A DNA stretch of 64,000 nucleotides from Candidatus Limnocylindria bacterium (GTDB lineage: Bacteria > Chloroflexota > Limnocylindria > QHBO01). The notes under the pieces were generated by a model. It was not told the origin of the DNA, did no database searches, and worked only from the letters and a program-made list of their open reading frames with translations. The stretch spans positions 5,108 to 69,107 of the forward strand of contig JBBSCG010000004.1 of NCBI GenBank assembly GCA_038250515.1. Direction: 5' to 3'. Made by a program: the position numbers and the translations under genes. Below, in pieces: positions 1-9,815 of this stretch; positions within the stretch are counted from its first letter, which is position 1, and each line of letters begins with the position of its first letter.

Positions 1-2
1 CG

Positions 3-95
3 ACGGCAATCCGCGCCGCAATCTACCTGCTGGTGGCCGCCATCCTGGTCGCGGGCGCGTACATCGCGGTTCTTCGCGTCCCCGCCTTCGGCTGA
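3..95 (+). CDS. 3' end of a membrane protein, truncated by the window edge
   Basis: Frame 3 reads TAIRAAIYLLVAAILVAGAYIAVLRVPAFG*, one hydrophobic helix with GC3-rich codons. Confidence 0.55.
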   Translation, partial: TAIRAAIYLLVAAILVAGAYIAVLRVPAFG

Positions 96-281
96 CCTCG
101 CTCCGCGGTCGCCCGCCGCCGTGCTTACGCAGACTGTACCGATTCCGCATTGGAGCTGCTCCGGCCGGCTTGCTCGCCGCTGCGGACCGACTTCGTCCGG
201 AGGCCGTGTTTTCGAGCCCCTTACATCCGTCGATGAGGCCCCTCTCGCGGTTGGCGTTGGGATATCGCCCGCAATGGTTGG

Positions 282-306
282 TTGACATCAGGGACTATAG
301 TCTATA
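282..306 (+). promoter_or_regulatory. Promoter/operator of the Cys-rich peptide cassette
   Basis: Perfect TTGACA at 282-287, then overlapping palindromes GACTATAGTC (293-302) and TATAG-T-CTATA (296-306). The -10 element is not clean. Confidence 0.45.
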
Positions 307-339
307 CGTGGGTAATCGCAGTGAGATGAGGTAGGGGAC

Positions 340-678
340 ATGGAAAGGCTCGCTGAATTCTCCGAGCGCGCCGGCGAAGCGATCGCGCGTCGGCGCTTCC
401 TTGGACGCGCGGCTACCTGGGGGGCCGGGCTTGCGGGAGCGCTGCTGCTTCCTTCCCTTTCGAGGGCGGGCACCAGCGATGCCGAGAGCAACCGCGTGTC
501 GAGCGTGCACCAAACGGGACTTCGCGCCTGCACCATCTATTGCACCAAAGTCGAGTCGTGCGGAGCGTGTGCCGCCAGCAAGTCATGGCACCGCTGCGTC
601 AACACCTGTGATGGCTTCGTCTCCTACGCCTGCCTGTCGCCGTGCAACAGCTTCTGCCAATCGATCGGAACCTGCTAA
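340..678 (+). CDS. Tat-exported cysteine-rich small protein (10 Cys in the C-terminal 49 aa)
   Basis: Twin-arginine motif ARRRFLG, hydrophobic h-region and SRA cleavage-like site. Core pattern C-x3-C-x5-C-x2-C-x8-C-x3-C-x7-C-x3-C-x3-C-x5-C. Purine-rich RBS-like GAGGTAGGGG upstream. Confidence 0.85.
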   Translation: MERLAEFSERAGEAIARRRFLGRAATWGAGLAGALLLPSLSRAGTSDAESNRVSSVHQTGLRACTIYCTKVESCGACAASKSWHRCVNTCDGFVSYACLSPCNSFCQSIGTC

Positions 679-693
679 GCGGGACCGCAGCAC

Positions 694-3363
694 GTGCTCC
701 GCTTCGCCTTGGCACAACTCTGGTCCAGTCGCGTCGCTACGGTCCTGGCGTCGCTCGGCCTGCTGACGGCAACCGTAGGGTTCCTCCTTCTGACCAGTAC
801 ATCGAGGACCACCCGCGCGGTGGTCACCGGCGATCTTAGTCGAGCGTGGCGCGCCCCCTACGACATTCTGGTTCGGCCCCTGGGTGCGCGTGCCGATCTT
901 GAAGAGCGCCAAGGGCTGCTACGTCCGAATTTCTTGTCTGGCGTGACCGGTGGGATTACTCGCGATCAGCTCGCCGCGATCCGGGACGTTAGTGGAGTGC
1001 AGATTGCCGCCCCGATTGCGCTCGCCGGGATGGTGACCTGGCCGTCGGCCGTCTCGATCAACGACCTAGTGCCGTACGTCGACGATGAGAGCTCACTCCA
1101 ATTGTTCAGACTAACTCTTGAACTCCGCGGTGAGGCGGGACTGTCGCGCTATCCGGCACCGCCACCCGACTACTTACTGGTCGCGCCACATGGTCGCATC
1201 GATCTGAAGGAGTCCACCGAATCTACGGAGGTCAGGCTGTCCGCGGCGAGTCACAGCCTCGATTGTTATCAAGTCCCCGTTTCGCCCGACGAGAAGGTGG
1301 CCGTGCCGTGTTTTGGCGGCGATAGCGCCGGGGTTGACAACGGATTCTTCCGACCCAGTGCCGTACCGGCGGATCGTCCGGCGATCTGGGCACGCTTCAA
1401 TCAGCCGATCGTCGTCGCGGGGATCGATCCGTCAGCCGAGGCGGCGCTGGTCGGACTCGATTCGTGCCTGGCCTCGGGGCGCTACCTGACCAACAGCGAT
1501 GGGCCAATGCTGGCTAAAAGGCCGAACATACCGGAAGAGGTGTCGGTCATTCCAATGCTGGTCAGCAACCAGTCGTTTCTCGATGAAGATTTGACCTTGC
1601 GGGTCGAACGCTCATCGGCGGATGGGCTCTGGAACGGAGCATCCATTGCGCAGCTGGATGACTGGCGGGAGGTCGCCCGCGTCACGGCGACTGCCGATGA
1701 CGCCTATCGCAACTTTCTCCCCACTCTGTCGTCGAGCAACACGACACTCATCGGCTCATCACTCTGGACGCCGAGCGACGTCTCCTACACGACGGTCGGG
1801 CCGGACCATCTGGCCGCCCACAGCATGCAGCCGAATCTCGCGCTGTTCGCTTCCCCGCGATTCTCGCAGGGGGTGGATGTGCCGCCTGAAGCACACGACG
1901 ATTGGTTCCGTTCGCTCACTCCGCACCCTCAGATCCTCGCTGGTGAGCCTCCTCCGATCTTCGGACTGGCGGGCCAGTACGATCCGACCTGTCTTCCGGG
2001 ATTCGACCCGCTCGCCGGCTATCGGCTGGAAACCTACGCTCCCGCTCAGGTAGCTCTAGCCAATGGCGAAGTATTGGGGCCCACACGAAACATGGCCGGC
2101 TACGTCAACTCGCCGCCCCTCGCGTTGACGACGCTGGAGACCGCGGAATGGCTCGCCGATCCGAAGCGTTTTGAAGGAAGGCCGGGTTCTGCATTCATCA
2201 GCGCTGTGCGAATACGGGTAAATGGGGCAGAGGAGCCAGGACCGATTGCGGAGGCGCGCTTGGCCCGAGTCAGCGAAGACATTGCTACCGCCACGGGCCT
2301 GGACGTCGACATTGTCGTCGGCTCGAGCCCCCGTCCGATTCAGGTGGATCTGCCGGATGGAAAGTTCGGACGTCCCGCCCTGACCGTCAGCGAGGGGTGG
2401 TCGGTCAAGGGTGTTGCGGTTCGCTTCCTCGAGGCAGTGCGGATCCAGGATGTCGTCATCTTCAGCCTTGTACTGGTGGCCGCAGGGCTTCTCGTAGCGG
2501 AAACGGCGTACCTCTCCGTTCGACAACGACGGCTTCAGTTTGGTCTCCTGCGAGCCCTCGGTTGGTCCCGGCTACGGATTGCCGTGCTGGTCGAACTGGA
2601 GATGCTGCTGCTGGGCGCGGCAGTCGGAATTGTCGCGTTGCTCATCGGAGTTGGGTTGACACAGACCGGCGTCGGCGCGGCGCCCATTCTCGCCGCCATT
2701 CCGCTCTCCGTACTGATTGCTGGCCTGGGCGCTCTTGGTCCGGCATTCGCGGCCTCGCGTGGCCCAGCAGTTCAGACGCTTCGAGGAAATCCAATCACAG
2801 CAACTGGCCGATTCAATAGCATCGGCGCCTTCTCTATAAACGAACTGCTCAGAAACCGGCGTGTCGAAGCGGGTCTCGGCCTATTGGCGGTCGTCATGGC
2901 ATCCGTCCTATTGGGCAGCGTTCTGCTGGTGACCACGGCGTTCGCCGGCACACTCGACACGACGCTCCTGGGCACCTACCTGTCTGGCCGAGTGCAACCG
3001 TTCCATCTGTTGATCACCGGGTTGACGTTTGTCGTCACCATTTTCGCGATCGCCGAGATCGTCATGATCAGCTATCTCGAACGCGCACCCGAACTTGCCA
3101 CGCTACGTGCGCTGGGTTGGCCCCGCCGTGCATTGGCGATGTTCATCGTGACGCAGGCATTTGTCCTCGGCTTGATCGGCGGTTTGGTTGGCGGAGGAGT
3201 CGTCGGCGTCTTGGGGGTGGGCCTTGGAGCGAGCCCCGCCGCCCTACTGGGATCGGCCGCGGCGGCGAGCCTGACCGCGACGCTCCTGACGACGGCGGCA
3301 AGTGCTGGACCCCTGGCCTACATCTATCGGGCGCAGCCGATCACGACGTTGCGGGCCGAGTGA
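694..3363 (+). CDS. MacB/FtsX-family ABC transporter permease with a large extracytoplasmic domain
   Basis: N-terminal TM helix, about 550-aa soluble domain, two FtsX repeats (RQRRLQFGLLRALGW; ERAPELATLRALGW). Confidence 0.85.
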   Translation: MLRFALAQLWSSRVATVLASLGLLTATVGFLLLTSTSRTTRAVVTGDLSRAWRAPYDILVRPLGARADLEERQGLLRPNFLSGVTGGITRDQLAAIRDVSGVQIAAPIALAGMVTWPSAVSINDLVPYVDDESSLQLFRLTLELRGEAGLSRYPAPPPDYLLVAPHGRIDLKESTESTEVRLSAASHSLDCYQVPVSPDEKVAVPCFGGDSAGVDNGFFRPSAVPADRPAIWARFNQPIVVAGIDPSAEAALVGLDSCLASGRYLTNSDGPMLAKRPNIPEEVSVIPMLVSNQSFLDEDLTLRVERSSADGLWNGASIAQLDDWREVARVTATADDAYRNFLPTLSSSNTTLIGSSLWTPSDVSYTTVGPDHLAAHSMQPNLALFASPRFSQGVDVPPEAHDDWFRSLTPHPQILAGEPPPIFGLAGQYDPTCLPGFDPLAGYRLETYAPAQVALANGEVLGPTRNMAGYVNSPPLALTTLETAEWLADPKRFEGRPGSAFISAVRIRVNGAEEPGPIAEARLARVSEDIATATGLDVDIVVGSSPRPIQVDLPDGKFGRPALTVSEGWSVKGVAVRFLEAVRIQDVVIFSLVLVAAGLLVAETAYLSVRQRRLQFGLLRALGWSRLRIAVLVELEMLLLGAAVGIVALLIGVGLTQTGVGAAPILAAIPLSVLIAGLGALGPAFAASRGPAVQTLRGNPITATGRFNSIGAFSINELLRNRRVEAGLGLLAVVMASVLLGSVLLVTTAFAGTLDTTLLGTYLSGRVQPFHLLITGLTFVVTIFAIAEIVMISYLERAPELATLRALGWPRRALAMFIVTQAFVLGLIGGLVGGGVVGVLGVGLGASPAALLGSAAAASLTATLLTTAASAGPLAYIYRAQPITTLRAE

Positions 3364-3366
3364 AGG

Positions 3367-3801
3367 ATGGCGATGTTCAGTACGATTACTGCACTCGGTG
3401 TTGCCACCCTCTTTCTCGTGTCGGGTATTGCGAAGGTTACCAATCCAAGCAGTTTTCGTTCGGTTCTGTTCAGTACCTACCACATGCCTCGACGATTGGC
3501 ATTTGTCGCGTCGTTCGGCGTACCGCTCGCAGAGATCGTTTTGGCTGTGCTTCTGCTTGTCCCAAAAGTGCGACCAATCGGACTGATCGCGGCCGTTTGC
3601 CTGTTCCTGGTGTTCACTTTGACCCAAGCGGTGGCCTGGTCGGCCGGATGGAGCGGCGAGTGTGGCTGCTTCGGGAGCCTCAAACGGCAGCACCTAGGAG
3701 GCCGGACCCTCTTGCAGGTCACACTCTTGGCTCTCGTCACGAGCGTCGCCATGGCGCTGTCGATAAACGAAGCCTCTACCCACGTGGCTGGGCTTCGGTG
3801 A
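3367..3801 (+). CDS. MauE/DoxX-family redox membrane protein
   Basis: FLVSGIAK, VPLAEIVLA and GECGCFG motifs; four TM segments. Confidence 0.85.
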   Translation: MAMFSTITALGVATLFLVSGIAKVTNPSSFRSVLFSTYHMPRRLAFVASFGVPLAEIVLAVLLLVPKVRPIGLIAAVCLFLVFTLTQAVAWSAGWSGECGCFGSLKRQHLGGRTLLQVTLLALVTSVAMALSINEASTHVAGLR

Positions 3802-4343
3802 CCGACTTGCTTCCTATTATCACCTCCGTTGCGGCAGTGATCCTGTCAGCCCTTGCGCTCGCTCTGGCGGCGGGTGCGACGCTCAGGTTAGCGAGGTTGG
3901 AGCGAGCCGTTCAAGGGTCTACGCGAGGACTGCCAAATGGATCAGTTGCGCCGCTCAAGCCGCTCGAGACACTCATCGGGAGTGGGAACTCAGAGATGTG
4001 GATGGAGGGGCCATCACTCATCATCTTCGCAAGTGCCGCTTGCCCACCCTGCCGTGAACTGATGGAGACCATCGAAGATCTCGCCACTCCCTTCTCAGGG
4101 CGGGTGTTGGTTGCCGATGTCGGCGCAGATACCGAAACGTTGAGGCGAATGGTCCGATCCGATGCGGCGAAGGTTCGGAACGATCAAGATCGCATTTTGC
4201 AGCATGCCTTTGGGAGCGACACCACTCCCCATTCGTTTCTTGTCCTGCACGGCGAGGTCGCCGACCAAGCGATAGGCAGCGATATTCAGCGATTGGTGGA
4301 GCACGCGCGGACCGGCGCGAAGCAAACGCAAACCACGGCATGA
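3798..4343 (+). CDS. MauD/TlpA-like membrane-anchored thioredoxin
   Basis: GTG start overlaps the previous stop (GTGA). N-terminal TM, GLPNGSVAP, F-x4-CPPC and a cis-Pro-like TTP motif. Confidence 0.8.
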   Translation: MTDLLPIITSVAAVILSALALALAAGATLRLARLERAVQGSTRGLPNGSVAPLKPLETLIGSGNSEMWMEGPSLIIFASAACPPCRELMETIEDLATPFSGRVLVADVGADTETLRRMVRSDAAKVRNDQDRILQHAFGSDTTPHSFLVLHGEVADQAIGSDIQRLVEHARTGAKQTQTTA

Positions 4344-4891
4344 GCCTGCAGGGAGCGCTCGCCGGCCTGCTCCTTCGGGGTCCTGCGCACGGTTACGAAC
4401 TGCATGCTGCGCTCGAGGCGGAGTTAGGCCCCCTCTGGTCGGTGCGCGCAAGTCAGGTGTATCTAACCTTGGGCAGAATGACCCGAGACGGCCTGATCCG
4501 TTCGCGGCGTGTGCGTCAGTCGTCACGCCCCGACCGGCAGATACTGACCCTCACTGCGTCGGGGCGCACGCTCGCCAGCTCGTTCTTGATGGACGAGGGT
4601 CCTGCAGCCGAAATGGTCGTACGACTATGCATCGCCCGGCTCTCGACGCCCGAGAGCTTTGGCGCGGTGTTGGATGCGATCACCGAGGAGCAGTCCGCCG
4701 CCGTACATCGCCTGCGCCGCCTGCTGCCGGGGTCCGAGGCCGGATTTCAAGAAGAGGCGCTGCAGTTGGAGATTGCGCGCCGCGAAGCGGACTTGCGGTG
4801 GCTCGCCGTCGTGCGCGATAAGGCGGATGCCGTCGTCGACCGGCCTCCGGCGCGGAATATGGCAGACACGGTGATCCGCCTTGCGCGATAG
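4340..4891 (+). CDS. PadR-family transcriptional regulator
   Basis: LAGLLLRGPAHGYEL, SQVYLTLGRM, RPDRQILTLTASG. Confidence 0.9.
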   Translation: MSLQGALAGLLLRGPAHGYELHAALEAELGPLWSVRASQVYLTLGRMTRDGLIRSRRVRQSSRPDRQILTLTASGRTLASSFLMDEGPAAEMVVRLCIARLSTPESFGAVLDAITEEQSAAVHRLRRLLPGSEAGFQEEALQLEIARREADLRWLAVVRDKADAVVDRPPARNMADTVIRLAR

Positions 4892-5609
4892 AGTCGCCAT
4901 CTCGTTGCAGGGCGCCGGACGCACGTACCGCGAGGCCGCGCAGAGCATCGCCGCGCTGCGCGATCTCACCCTTGACATCGCCTACAATGAGAGTCTGGCC
5001 GTGACCGGCCCTTCCGGGTCCGGCAAGACGACTCTCTTGCACTTGATCGCTGGACTCGATCGTCCTACCAGCGGGACCGTCACGGTCCTTGGTCAGCGGC
5101 TGGAGGACGCATCGGAAGGGACTCTGACCAGGTTTCGCGCCAAGCGGGTAGGTATCGTGTTCCAGGATCCGCATCTGCTTCCCGGGCTATCAGCTCTCAA
5201 CAACATCGTGATAGCCGGCCTGCCGTATGCCTCCCGAAAGCTGCTCGAGTCCGAGGCTAGGGAGTTGTTGGAGGCTGTCGGATTAGGTGCGCGGATGGAT
5301 GCTTCACCCACCCGACTGTCGGGGGGAGAGCGCCAGCGTGTCGGGATTGCGCGTGCGCTGCTTGGGGGCCGGCCGATTCTCGTCGCGGATGAGCCGACGG
5401 GCAATCTTGACGCTGCGACCACGGAGGAGATCCTCTCACTTATCGATCGCCTCCGGCTGCAGCGTGAACTCACGGTCGTACTCGCGACACACGACCCGGC
5501 TGTGGCAAGCTTCGCTGACCGCGTGGTGCGGCTGATCGACGGACGGCTCGACGGGGAGCACCGACCGAATCGCCCCGGCCCACTCGAGGTCCATGAGCTC
5601 GATTCGTAG
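4881..5609 (+). CDS. ABC transporter ATP-binding protein (LolD/MacB type)
   Basis: Walker A GPSGSGKT, LSGGE signature, ADEPTGNLD, ATHD. Confidence 0.92.
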   Translation: MRDRVAISLQGAGRTYREAAQSIAALRDLTLDIAYNESLAVTGPSGSGKTTLLHLIAGLDRPTSGTVTVLGQRLEDASEGTLTRFRAKRVGIVFQDPHLLPGLSALNNIVIAGLPYASRKLLESEARELLEAVGLGARMDASPTRLSGGERQRVGIARALLGGRPILVADEPTGNLDAATTEEILSLIDRLRLQRELTVVLATHDPAVASFADRVVRLIDGRLDGEHRPNRPGPLEVHELDS

Positions 5610-5781
5610 GAGTACGAGCGTACCCTTGCCCAGCCGCGACGACGCCTCGACCGCGGTGCCTCCCCACACAGACCCTGCAGGGCCGCAAACGGCCTGATGA
5701 GGGTCGGCGGAACGCGCCTCTTGCGTACCGGCTCTTGCATGGCGCCACTTGCGATGGCGCGGCGGATTGAGTTAGCGCCAG

Positions 5782-5810
5782 TTGACGCCTGGCCGCCAGC
5801 GGCTCATGAT
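5782..5810 (+). promoter_or_regulatory. sigma70-type promoter of the trp leader
   Basis: TTGACG-N17-CATGAT just upstream of the T-box. Confidence 0.6.
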
Positions 5811-5832
5811 GCGCGCTCAATCGAACACGACA

Positions 5833-6090
5833 GGCGTCGACCGGGACGAGTACTCCGCCTCGACAGGCCACTTCAGCGAGCCGGGATGGTGCAAGCCGGC
5901 GTGGACCGCACGGACGAACTGGACCCGCGAGCTTCGCTCCGAACCCCGATCAGGGCAGTAGGCGGCGACGGACGTGAGCCACCGTTAGCATCGGGCTCGA
6001 ACCAAGCGCGGATCTGCTCGGCGGATCCGAACCAGGGTGGCACCGCGGAAGAACGCCTCCGTCCCTTCAATGGATGGAGGCGTTGTCATA
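5833..6090 (+). ncRNA. T-box riboswitch with tryptophan (UGG) specifier
   Basis: Stem I AGTA, AGCGAG and GGTGCAA boxes; specifier loop GAACTGGA (TGG at 5920-5922); stem II GAA/AGTA; CCGTTA F-box; antiterminator AGGG-TGGCACC-GCGG...CCGT-CCCT; competing hairpin AACGCCTCCGTCC/GGATGGAGGCGTT. Confidence 0.92.
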
Positions 6091-6108
6091 TCCGGAAGGA
6101 TGAAACCC

Positions 6109-7152
6109 ATGGCGAGCAGGACGGACGAATCGGCCCAGCACCGGCCGGCGGTGGCAGCCGCGGTCGAGCTCGTCGCCAACGGCGCCCCGATGCCGGCACC
6201 CCTCGCTGAGGCGGCCATGGAAGAGCTGATGGACGGCAGCGCGCCGGCCATCCAGGTGGCGGCGCTGCTGGCCATGCTGCGCCTGCGAGGCGAGACGCCG
6301 GAAGAGCTGGCGGCGTTTGCCCGGGTCATGCGTGCGCGCGCCGTGCACGTCGAGGCTCCCGAGAACGCGGTCGATCTGTGCGGCACCGGCGCCGACGGAA
6401 GCGGCACCTTCAACATCTCGACGCTGGCCGCCTTCGTGGTGGCCGGAGCGGGTGTGCCGGTGGCAAAGCACGGCAATCGCGCGATCACCAGCCGATGCGG
6501 ATCCGCGGACCTGATCGAGGCGCTTGGCATCCCGCTCGATCCGGGACCCGAAACAGTGGCGAGGTCCATCCGCGAGACCTGCTTCGGCTTCATGTTCGCG
6601 CCGTCCTACCACCCAGCGCTCAAGCACGCCATACCTATCCGTCGCGAGCTGCCGATCCGCACCGTCTTCAATCTCCTTGGACCGATTTCGTCGCCGGCGG
6701 GCGTTCGCCGCCAGCTGCTTGGCGTGGCCGATGTGGGCCTGCTGCCGCTCATCGCCGGGGCGCTGGCCCGACTGCAGACGCTGCGAGCGCTGGTCATCCA
6801 CTCCCCGGAGGGTTTGGACGAGCTGACGCTCAATGGCCCGAACCGGGCGATGCTGGTCGAAGGCCGCACCGTGTCAGAGATGGAGATCGACGCCGCGGCC
6901 TTCGGGTTGAAGCGAGCGCCAGCCTCCGCGTTGGCCGGCGGTGACGCGCAGCTCAACGCAGCCATCGCCATGTCCGTGCTCGGCGGCGAGCCGGGCCCGG
7001 CGCGTGATGTGACGCTGCTCAACGCCGGCGCGGCGCTTTTCGCGGCGGGACGAGTGGCGGATGTTGCCGAGGGCGTCGAGCTGGCGGCGACCTCCATCGA
7101 TTCAGGCAAGGCCGCTGAGGTCGTCACCGCGGCAGCAGCGATCATAGCATGA
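6109..7152 (+). CDS. trpD: Anthranilate phosphoribosyltransferase
   Basis: [28 protein letters not shown]. Start chosen after the GGAAGGA RBS. Confidence 0.95.
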
Positions 7153-9815
7153 CCATTCTCGATCAGCTGCTCACGGCGTCGCGGGCTCGTGCGCGGCACG
7201 ACGCACGGATCGTGCCGTTCCGCGAGCTGCGCCACGAGGTCAACGCCCTTCCGCCGGCGCGACGCTTTGAGGCGGCACTGCGCTACGGCAATCGGCTGGG
7301 TGTCATCGCCGAGATCAAGCGCACTTCGCCGTCCGCGGGCAGCTTTGCCGCTTTCGGTGGCGTGGCACAGCTGGCGCACGGGTATTTCGAAGCCGGCGCG
7401 GCTGCGCTTTCGATCCTGACCGAGCCGACGCACTTCGGCGGCAGCGACGAGGACCTGCGGGCGGCGTCAGGCATCGGTCTGCCGGTCCTGCGGAAGGATT
7501 TCACGACGAATGCCTACCAGGTCTTCCAGGCGCGAGCCATCGGGGCCGATGCGGTCCTGCTGATCGCGCGCGCCCTGCCGGGCGACGCGCTGCGCCAGCT
7601 GCTCGAAGCGGCCGCCGAGGCCGGCCTGGACGGCCTGGTCGAGGTGCACGACCAGGCCGAGCTGGAGCGGGCGCTCGAAGCGGACGCGACGCTGATCGGC
7701 GTCAATGCCCGCGATCTCGCGACGCTCGAGACGGACGTGCCGCGTGCCCTTCGCCTCGTCGAGCAGGCGCAATCCTCGGGCGCCACCCTCATCGCGGAGA
7801 GTGGCCTGTCCACTGCTGATGATCTCGCGCGGGCTGGGGAGACCGGCGCACACGGCGTCCTCGTCGGCGCGAGCCTGCTGGCGTCGGCCGATCCCGCCGG
7901 CACCGCCCGGCGACTGATCGAGGTTGCGCCGCGACGTGAGGCGCCCAGCGTGCCGGAGCATCCAACACGTGCGATGGTCAAGGTCTGCGGAACGCGGACT
8001 GAGGCCGGCGTTCGCGCGGCCGTCGCCGCGGGTGCGGACTTCGTCGGGTTCGTGGTGGCGTCCGAACGGCGTCGCCGCGTCGGCGCTGAACGCGTCGCTG
8101 AGCTTGCCCGAGGGCTCAATGGCGGACCGAAGCCGGTCCTCGTCTTCCATCGGCCGACCCGTGATCAGGTCGAAGCGGCCATCACGGAGAGCGGCATCCG
8201 CAACATCCAGCTGTCCGGCTTCAGCGCGCCGCCGCCCTGGGCTGCAAACGTCGACCACGACGAGCTGATCGGCGTCCTGCACGGCGGACCGGGTGCGCGC
8301 GAGACGTTGCAGCACGCCGAAGCGTGGTATGCCGCCGGCGCGACCCGGATCCTGTTGGAGGGCGCGACTGGCGCCGAAGGCGGCGGCTCGGGCCGCACGC
8401 CGCCGCTGGAGCTCCTGCGGCGACTGAACCGCATCCTGCCTATGGGTTTGGCCGGAGGGCTGGTGCCCGCGAACGTGAGCCGCGCGACGGCCATCGCCCG
8501 GCCGGCGCTCGTCGACGCCAGCGGGGGATTGGAGCGTGACGGAGAGCCAGACCCCCAGCGGGTCACGGCCTTTGTGCGCAATGCGCGTCGCGACCCGACC
8601 GGCGCCGACCGCGTCGACGCCCGGGGCCGCTTCGGCCGCTTCGGCGGGCGCTACGTTCCCGAGACGCTCATCCCGGCACTCGACGAGCTGACCGACGCCT
8701 GGACGATCGCGCGCCGCGACCCGGCGTACACCGCCGAGCTCAGCAGCCTGCATCGCGATTTCATCGGTCGTGCCACGCCGATCTTCGAGATCCCGCCCGA
8801 CGCGCTCGCGGAGCGCGGCGGAATCGGTCAACGGGTATTCCTCAAGCGCGAGGATTTGGCGCACACCGGCGCGCACAAGATCAACAACGCCATCGGGCAG
8901 ACGCTGCTGGCCAAGCGTATGGGCAAGCCGCGGGTGATCGCCGAAACCGGTGCGGGTCAGCATGGCGTCGCGACCGCGACCGCCTGTGCGCTGCTCGGCC
9001 TGGAGTGCGTCGTCTACATGGGCACGACCGACATCGAGCGCCAGGCGCCGAATGTCCAGCGCATGCACCTGCTCGGCGCCGAGGTTCGCCCTGTCGCCAC
9101 CGGCAACGGCACGCTGCGGGACGCGCTCAATGAGGCGCTGCGCGACTGGGTTGCGAACGTCGAGACGACCTTCTACGTCCTCGGCTCAGCCGCTGGCCCG
9201 CATCCCTATCCGGACATGGTCGCCGAGCTCCAGTCCGTGATCGGCCGCGAGGCACGCGCGCAGATGCTGGAACGCCTCGGCCGGCTGCCTGACGTCGCGA
9301 TGGCCTGCGTCGGAGGTGGTAGCAATGCCATTGGCCTCTTACGGCCGTTCCTCGACACGCCGGTGCGGCTGATCGGCGTCGAGGCGGGTGGCCGCGGCGA
9401 CGCGCTCGGTGACAATGCCGCCTCGCTCGGCCTCGGCCGTCCGGGCGTGCTCCACGGCGCCTTCACGATGCTGACCCAGACCGCCGACGGGCAGGTCGTC
9501 GAGCCGCATTCGCTCTCCGCGGGCCTCGACTATCCTGGTGTCGGGCCGCAGCTGTCGGCGCTGGCGGCTTCCGGTCGCCTGCGGGTCGAGCGTGCCACGG
9601 ACGATGAAGCACTCGAGGCATTGCACTGGTTGTCGCGGCGCTGCGGGATCGTGCCGGCGCTCGAGTCGGCGCACGCCGTGGCGGCGGCTCTGCGGATGCT
9701 GCCCTCGCTGCCCGCTTCGACTGCCGTGCTCGTGAATCTTTCGGGGCGGGGCGACAAGGACCTGGCGATCGTCGAGCAGGCACTGCCCTCCGCGGTGGCT
9801 GCCGTGACTGCATGA
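7149..9815 (+). CDS. trpB: Fused indole-3-glycerol-phosphate synthase / PRA isomerase / tryptophan synthase beta (TrpC-TrpF-TrpB)
   Basis: TrpC: [26 protein letters not shown]. TrpF: VKVCG, GLAGGL, DASGGLE. TrpB: [55 protein letters not shown]. Confidence 0.92.

Follow-up and report, generated by a model that had tools for sequence, protein, structure and literature searches.

A family of Tat-signal, cysteine-rich mini-proteins genetically tied to MauE and a thioredoxin-fold protein, in an island-borne operon with a PadR/ABC transporter module from a Limnocylindria bacterium

The DNA analyzed here, hereafter the window, is a stretch of 64,000 nucleotides on contig C4 of the 2.19-Mb, 96%-complete assembly (G000) of a Candidatus Limnocylindria bacterium. 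Positions 340-5609 of its forward strand hold an operon of six genes that overlap or nearly abut, encoding in order a small cysteine-rich precursor with a signal for twin-arginine translocation (Tat), an FtsX permease, a MauE protein, a thioredoxin-fold protein, a PadR-family regulator and an ATP-binding cassette (ABC) ATPase. The precursor belongs to a conserved peptide family, the linkage of this family to the redox genes recurs in other genomes, and the operon sits on an inserted island. We propose that the operon is a portable kit for producing and handling a secreted, disulfide-knotted mini-protein, a reading that we hold tentatively and, for the whole chain of steps, at a little under an even chance. 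Taken alone, the dedicated maturation step, in which Tat export is coupled to the MauE/thioredoxin pair, is probable on the gene content, and an antimicrobial role with immunity for the producer is possible but rather doubtful.

The six co-oriented open reading frames (ORFs) are all real, with coordinates and junctions exactly as they had been given by an earlier sequence-only reading of this DNA. The 112-aa precursor of a predicted Tat-exported Cys-rich mini-protein (340-678, forward strand, as are all six genes), which is defined by ORF, profile and alignment evidence, is separated by a 15-bp gap from the 889-aa FtsX permease, assigned to the type VII or MacB superfamily (694-3363; PF02687). 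A gap of 3 bp follows before the 144-aa MauE, a putative DsbB-like membrane thiol oxidase (3367-3801; PF07291). The MauE gene overlaps by 4 bp (GTGA) that of the 181-aa membrane-anchored thioredoxin-fold protein (3798-4343; CPPC motif and N-terminal anchor), which in turn shares 4 bp (ATGA) with the gene of the 183-aa PadR-family transcriptional regulator (4340-4891; PF03551). The last gene, overlapping that of PadR by 11 bp, encodes a 242-aa ABC ATPase of the LolD/MacB/FtsE type (4881-5609; PF00005).

The precursor carries RRRF at residues 17-20 within a leader of about 45 residues, and a linker joins this leader to a 49-aa core. Its ten cysteines are at residues 64, 68, 74, 77, 86, 90, 98, 102, 106 and 112, the last being the C-terminal residue, and the core has one tryptophan, in agreement with the sequence-only reading. 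The twin arginine followed by a hydrophobic region corresponds to the features expected of a Tat substrate, and TatC is encoded in the genome (198 bits). The precursor reaches 15.7 bits against the Tat-signal family TIGR01409, the cut-off being 16.7, and has no other family match. Two identities were set aside, that of an iron-sulfur (Fe-S) ferredoxin because the CxxCxxC pattern is absent, and that of a lipoprotein because no lipobox Cys follows the signal.

A word-based homologue search with the peptide returned the query itself only. A family profile was built from three peptides (G000, G027 and G035, the last two reached via permease synteny), and searching it against 1.84 billion representative proteins gave 42 matches at E<=1e-3, of which 13 reach E<=1e-10. 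P0042, an unrelated repeat protein, is a false positive among them, and a few are incomplete; the family amounts to about 40 clusters, and in the ten clusters inspected the named members are all called 'hypothetical protein'. None of the members matches a Pfam or NCBIfam family, and the peptide family, judged by sequence, is undescribed, as had been suggested. In a 32-row family alignment the twin arginine (32 of 32 rows) and six cysteines are invariant, and three further cysteines occur in at least 90% of the rows. The cores have 48-63 residues with 8-14 cysteines, and end in a Cys in 31 of the 32 members. The core is a conserved Cys scaffold, and the variable core, of the kind found in ribosomally synthesized and post-translationally modified peptides (RiPPs), that the sequence-only reading had expected is not borne out. 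Among the six genes there is none for a RiPP-modifying enzyme (radical S-adenosylmethionine enzyme, cyclodehydratase, lanthionine synthetase and the like), just redox, transport and regulator genes.

Members of this family are rare. In a class sample of 401 genomes, full-length matches occur in G000, G027, G035 and G079 and a divergent one in G136; the matches at E<=0.01 in 102 other genomes cover leader positions or frames of unrelated length. In a phylum sample, likewise of 401 genomes, two genomes match the family profile, and two metagenome scans gave no match. In one 311-aa member (P0032) leader and core are joined to a thioredoxin; since its sole source is a 1.8-kb contig, it is a lead only. 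The structure model of the peptide has a mean predicted local distance difference test score (pLDDT) of 64, with 72-87 in the core. Structural similarity search with Foldseek gave no fold match (best E 0.38), which for a low-confidence model is uninformative on the novelty of the fold, and VIA-align gave none either (best Z 3.4, mostly over the leader helix).

The leader appears to connect this family to MauA, the light chain of methylamine dehydrogenase. The best solved-structure match of the family profile is the light-chain precursor 3c75_L (residues 10-143, E 7.2e-6), with the identity concentrated in the leader, and the peptide leader seems to resemble that of MauA in its length and its conserved N-region. 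With a core-only profile, MauA was not found in the PDB at E<=10, and PF02975, the MauA family, matched none of the 32 members at the same threshold. Tryptophan is absent from 18 of the 32 cores, and the family ends before what we take to be the MauA region with the second tryptophan of the tryptophan tryptophylquinone (TTQ) cofactor. In a language-model feature search, PF02975 is carried by 4 of the 30 nearest clusters. The mature part, as far as its sequence tells, contains no recognizable MauA and would be unable to make TTQ. In the 96%-complete genome neither mauA (PF02975) nor mauB (PF06433) was found, blanks that are weak because these controls were silent in every control genome; mauG (PF03150) was not found either, with a control positive in 4 genomes. 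The absence of mauB and mauG, first noted for the window, thus extends to the assembled genome, weakly so for mauB.

The MauE protein matches PF07291 with 89.1 bits (cut-off 27) over residues 1-126, and hydropathy gives it four hydrophobic segments. It contains C99-G-C101-F-G, K23 and E56, that is, the CXC-FG motif, the Lys in the first transmembrane segment (TM1) and the Glu in TM2 that form the conserved signature described in a 2026 bioRxiv preprint (10.64898/2026.03.05.709764). According to the main text of that preprint, MauE from two phyla replaces DsbB in Escherichia coli via a required CXC site, MauA is present in only 10.2% of MauE-bearing species, and in 8.2% of the MauE entries the protein is fused to a thioredoxin-fold domain; MauE is argued to be a DsbB-like generalist that partners a thioredoxin-fold protein. 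Given what this source reports, the enzymology of MauE itself is not new.

The thioredoxin-fold protein has CPPC at residues 82-85 and a single N-terminal hydrophobic segment (residues 1-32). It scores 20.4 bits against PF00085 (cut-off 23.5), every thioredoxin-family match being below cut-off, and 14.4 bits against the MauD family TIGR02661, whose equivalog cut-off is 188.6. The name 'MauD-like' used in the sequence-only reading therefore fits the architecture, an N-terminal membrane anchor plus CPPC, and fails by profile. Across the homologous loci the active-site motif is seen as CPPC, CQPC, CEPC, CAPC or CGPC. The idea of a repurposed MauDE machinery survives in so far as the sequences support a genetic tie between a MauE/thioredoxin pair and a Tat-signal Cys-rich peptide outside the methylamine dehydrogenase context; it is less striking than it first seemed, because MauE is a generalist.

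Two VKOR homologues are encoded in the genome and DsbB was not found there, so both MauE genes are unlikely to be the general source of disulfides, and the window MauE looks dedicated rather than housekeeping. The second MauE gene lies on contig C73 (L003, 2580-5009, reverse strand), in a locus whose genes run in one direction and encode a 267-aa membrane protein without a family match, MauE, a MauD-like protein and a 160-aa Tat protein with 22 Cys. This order resembles the mauF-E-D-A order of mau clusters. The MauD-like protein matches TIGR02661 over its whole length with 62.3 bits, still below cut-off, and the locus is flanked by Replic_Relax-type (relaxase-like) and transposase-like genes. 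For the Tat protein, three relatives and no named family were found in the databases. Its leader is similar to those of the window peptide family and also to that of another Cys-rich ORF, in G136.

Eight peptide-bearing loci were counted (G000, G027, G035, G136, G079, L059, L060 and L061), all from metagenome-assembled genomes of Chloroflexota. A CxxC thioredoxin adjoins the peptide gene in all eight. Intact MauE is present in six, with a remnant only in G035 and none within the 1.6 kb available in L060; the ABC ATPase is found in seven, PadR in six and FtsX in six, the contig of L059 ending before the position of FtsX. The eight loci show at least four gene orders, and the arrangements seen are peptide-FtsX-MauE-thioredoxin-PadR-ABC, thioredoxin-PadR-ABC-peptide-FtsX, MauE(-)/peptide-thioredoxin-PadR-ABC-FtsX, MauE-thioredoxin-peptide-FtsX-ABC and peptide-thioredoxin-MauE. 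Around homologous peptides the same gene set is found again in seven further loci, in several orders, and such recurrence makes the arrangement more than chance. In G027 (L018, 6711-9390, reverse strand) a TAA stop splits the FtsX permease into two ORFs in an otherwise intact syntenic operon. In G079 (L052, 15955-17969) a further thioredoxin-MauE pair and another MauD-like gene lie about 8 kb from the peptide-thioredoxin-MauE locus; a tyrosinase-like ORF and an extracytoplasmic function (ECF) sigma factor, both identified by eye, are near that region.

The permease is, by sequence and model, a predicted type VII (MacB-superfamily) ABC permease. It matches PF02687 in two stretches (41 bits), and its hydropathy profile places an external domain of about 550 aa (residues 37-585) between a first helix and a group of three, after which comes a second module of four helices, giving two FtsX modules in one chain. 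The AlphaFold model has a mean pLDDT of 65, and its best Foldseek matches are Spr0694-0695, LolCDE, MacB, HrtBA, YbbAP and FtsEX, those to 5xu1, LolCDE, MacB, YbbAP and FtsEX having E from 2e-4 to 1e-2. The external domain contains four cysteines, at 191, 206, 258 and 433, of which C206 is invariant and the others belong to the consensus of eight homologues. The ABC ATPase matches PF00005 with 113 bits, the best NCBIfam entries being LolD, MacB and FtsE, all below their equivalog cut-offs, and the regulator matches PF03551 with 49.1 bits (cut-off 27). Neither a MacA-type adaptor nor an outer-membrane duct was found among the six genes or in the homologous loci inspected. A complex prediction of the external domain (37-585) with the peptide core (58-112) scored 0.01, evidence neither way.

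Type VII ABC systems are described as acting outside the membrane without carrying a substrate across it (PMC5985334, PMC12646458). The former gives as examples MacAB-TolC, which expels the enterotoxin STII after its Sec export and Dsb oxidation, YknXYZ, which protects the cell from its own SDP peptide, and AS-48EFGH, which serves a bacteriocin (PMC5985334).

The operon forms an inserted island of about 5.7 kb (window 97-5795). It stands between the gene of a tetratricopeptide-repeat (TPR)-rhomboid protein upstream and trpD downstream, and the congener G002 has these two genes side by side, with homologous flanks corresponding to window 5-96 and 5796-6398 and 37 bp in place of window 97-5795; the operon is hence a 5.7-kb insertion. 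The island has a GC fraction of 0.61-0.65, compared to 0.69-0.73 from position 5501 onward. The permease was found in none of five same-genus genomes, and the matches of the peptide profile in these five cover leader positions only. In run X1, a 6004-base contig covers window 1-5829 with zero differences, although this run may be the source sample and not independent, and the greater part of the island is also present, with about 99% identity, in run X2 from a second study. None of the six sequencing runs listed is recorded as RNA. One X2 record (record 9) aligns on window 266-742, with 435 bases upstream of window 266 that do not match the window; the island may lie in a different context in X2. 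The depth of the X2 flank (88-460) is far above that of the island (about 5-7).

Altogether, the maturation logic seems well supported by gene content and conservation, and the scheme that we propose for the operon, with biochemical steps and an antimicrobial role that we infer, runs as follows. The long MauA-type leader would target the 112-aa precursor to the Tat translocase. Outside the membrane, the anchored CPPC thioredoxin would form or shuffle up to five disulfides in the 49-residue core, and the CGC site of MauE would recycle the thioredoxin, presumably passing the electrons to quinone. The PadR-controlled type VII ABC would not translocate the peptide; its large external domain may push the folded peptide off the cell surface, an action that could amount to release, to protection of the producer, or to both. 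The operon would most likely equip a peptide weapon or signal with its own disulfide enzymes and a regulated pump, and the most likely biological role of the peptide would be that of a bacteriocin-like competition factor on an accessory island. A broader proposal, more speculative than this scheme and on balance doubtful, is that a MauA-type leader, MauE and a MauD-like thioredoxin form an old portable cassette for the maturation of Tat-exported knotted mini-proteins, with the methylamine dehydrogenase light chain as one member and the leader N-region as the handle that couples Tat export to folding; in Limnocylindria this cassette would have been joined to a PadR/type VII ABC module, yielding a Tat-dependent bacteriocin with pump immunity.

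Several observations weigh against the proposed kit. Locus L054 (G758) has the order thioredoxin-PadR-ABC-FtsX-MauE, and the family peptide was not found anywhere in its 2.3-Mb assembly, so the five-gene module can exist without the peptide. Conversely, G079 has the peptide, thioredoxin and MauE with no ABC or PadR nearby. In G035, the MauE-like frame after FtsX (L017, 9846-10292, forward strand) retains only the N-terminal part and lacks the CXC motif, apparently a decayed MauE. The thioredoxin motifs listed above are as close to those of reducing ResA/TlpA-type proteins as to those of oxidizing ones, and electron flow may consequently run either way. The net charge of the core is +1 in the window peptide and -4 to +3 over the family; a near-neutral core is unlike many cationic antimicrobial peptides. 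In addition, the peptide model is only moderately confident.

The first of these observations suits an alternative centered on the transporter, in which the core unit is the PadR-regulated type VII ABC, an envelope stress or resistance machine, and the peptide acts outside the cytoplasm as its dispensable partner or modulator, comparable to EnvC, LolA, MacA or TesA of other type VII systems, and no weapon. MauE and the thioredoxin would then serve the external domain or reduce incoming disulfide-rich toxins. Besides the peptide-free module of L054, the four cysteines of the external domain with the invariant C206 are consistent with it, as is the position of the peptide gene directly upstream of FtsX in four of the six FtsX-bearing loci (G000, G027, G035 and G136), and each characterized E. 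coli type VII ABC is described as working with a periplasmic partner (PMC12646458). This alternative is nevertheless unlikely: G079 has the peptide, thioredoxin and MauE without a transporter, the gene after the peptide in L059, L060 and L061 is that of thioredoxin and not FtsX, and the C73 locus pairs MauE and a MauD-like protein with a Cys-rich Tat protein in the absence of any ABC.

The cysteines might instead be metal or cluster ligands. The peptide would then be a small Fe-S, Cu or Zn protein that receives its cofactor in the cytoplasm and is exported by Tat in folded form, with the oxidoreductases keeping its cysteines reduced on the outside. The Tat signal, the C-x3-C spacings and the six invariant plus three near-invariant cysteines within about 50 residues would suit such a protein, and the thioredoxin motifs are compatible with a reductase. 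We regard this as improbable, however, since the ferredoxin pattern CxxCxxC is absent, a metal-handling gene occurs in none of the eight loci, and MauA is a precedent for a Tat substrate with disulfide-forming cysteines. The latter is also indicated by the introduction of the preprint, whose main text moreover has MauE acting as an oxidase in E. coli (10.64898/2026.03.05.709764).

It is very improbable that there is no dedicated link at all, and that a housekeeping MauE and thioredoxin merely stand beside an unrelated ABC/PadR module and a small ORF. The argument for a generalist MauE in the main text of the preprint (10.64898/2026.03.05.709764) would favor this, but the genome has two VKORs, both of its MauE copies are beside Tat Cys-rich ORFs, and the whole set moves as an island absent from five of five congeners and recurs in shuffled orders. 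The last alternative, hardly credible, takes the peptide for a shortened MauA with a TTQ-type or cysteine tryptophylquinone (CTQ)-type cofactor, serving as the cryptic small subunit of some quinoprotein amine dehydrogenase: the match to 3c75_L, the 4 of 30 clusters with PF02975 and the mauF-E-D-A-like order on C73 point toward it, but at E<=10 the core-only profile finds no MauA and none of the 32 members matches PF02975, 18 of the 32 cores lack Trp, MauB and MauG were not found, and the family presumably stops short of the second TTQ tryptophan.

The proposed mini-protein kit shares its closest features with the maturation of methylamine dehydrogenase, where mauE and mauD act on MauA. Both combine a CXC-bearing MauE and a membrane-anchored thioredoxin-fold partner with a small Cys-rich Tat substrate, and the leaders of the two substrates align over the N-region, the twin arginine and the h-region. 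They differ in that here the core of about 50 residues is unrelated to PF02975 by sequence and its Trp is not conserved, the thioredoxin is no MauD equivalog, an ABC transporter and PadR are added, and MauA, MauB and MauG were not found. Another comparison is the sublancin/glycocin cluster of Bacillus subtilis SPbeta, ordered sunA-sunT-bdbA-sunS-bdbB. This cluster likewise places the gene of a ribosomal peptide with its own thioredoxin-like/thiol-oxidase pair and an ABC on a mobile element, whereas its oxidase is of the DsbB family and it employs a double-glycine leader, a peptidase-ABC exporter, glycosylation and SunI immunity.

The FtsX/MacB-fold permease resembles the peptide handlers of the MacB superfamily, including MacAB-TolC for STII, YknXYZ for SDP, AS-48EFGH and BceAB, as these are presented in PMC5985334. 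The logic is also alike, with other machinery translocating and oxidizing the peptide before mechanotransmission from outside or protection of the producer comes into play (PMC5985334). Compared to these handlers, the permease has two FtsX modules per chain (YbbP-like), and its external domain, at about 550 aa, is unusually large; the operon has no MacA-type adaptor, TolC or two-component sensor, its regulator being PadR. A further likeness is to the Campylobacter jejuni fetMP-fetABCDEF cluster, in which an ABC system (two permease genes and an ATPase) is accompanied by membrane-associated thioredoxins of ill-understood role; that cluster serves iron uptake, and neither MauE nor a Cys-rich peptide is described for it in the relevant part of the paper (PMC10783030). 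The MauE of the preprint belongs to the same family and bears the same CXC-FG/Lys/Glu signature, but is presented in its main text as a generalist, whereas the gene described here shares its operon with a member of one substrate family, and its genome encodes VKOR as well; the peptides of this family are not mentioned in the parts of the preprint examined, the supplements lying outside this statement (10.64898/2026.03.05.709764).

Literature searches around MauE, which did not extend to those supplements, gave the preprint and the C. jejuni fet papers as the only relevant ones and found no paper on this substrate family, its leader or the PadR/ABC coupling. The novelty lies in the substrate family, in its leader of MauA type and in the repeated association with an island-borne PadR/type VII ABC module. 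The system is best filed as a new combination of known kinds, in which dedicated oxidative-folding genes travel together with the gene of a secreted peptide and with a pump of MacB type for handling or immunity. It offers the first candidate for a dedicated substrate family of the MauE pathway outside methylamine dehydrogenase, linked to it via the MauA-like leader. It also adds a family of bacterial disulfide-rich mini-proteins (8-14 Cys, about 50 residues) from Limnocylindria, a little-known class of soil and sediment bacteria; interest in such scaffolds stems from their use as frameworks for stable peptides and from their possible antimicrobial activity. Moreover, with just six genes and its own regulator, this compact system lends itself to the question of what a type VII ABC does with a peptide already folded outside the cell.

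Upstream of the peptide gene, a putative promoter/operator and ribosome-binding region (282-339, forward strand) was read from the sequence. It contains TTGACA (282-287), the palindrome GACTATAGTC (293-302), TATACG (303-308) and GAGG/AGGGG (328-337); a consensus promoter scan upstream of the peptide gene called no promoter. The same GACTATAGTC or related TATAGTC/GACTA elements occur upstream of homologous operons in G035 (L017, about 4946-4962), L054 and L059, and in several homologous operons the palindrome/TAGTC elements overlap TATAGT-like boxes. The palindrome may be a putative PadR operator.

At the gathering threshold, Rfam gave no match in window 1-6400. Below it, a T-box leader is seen before trpD (5828-6069, forward strand), matching RF00230 with 86.2 bits and E 2.8e-19 against a gathering score of 93. 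This element begins right at the right edge of the island, and the annotated GTG start of trpD (6037) lies inside it; the true trpD start is probably further downstream. Beyond it, an 888-aa ORF (7149-9815, forward strand) appears by eye to be a TrpC-TrpF-TrpB triple fusion.

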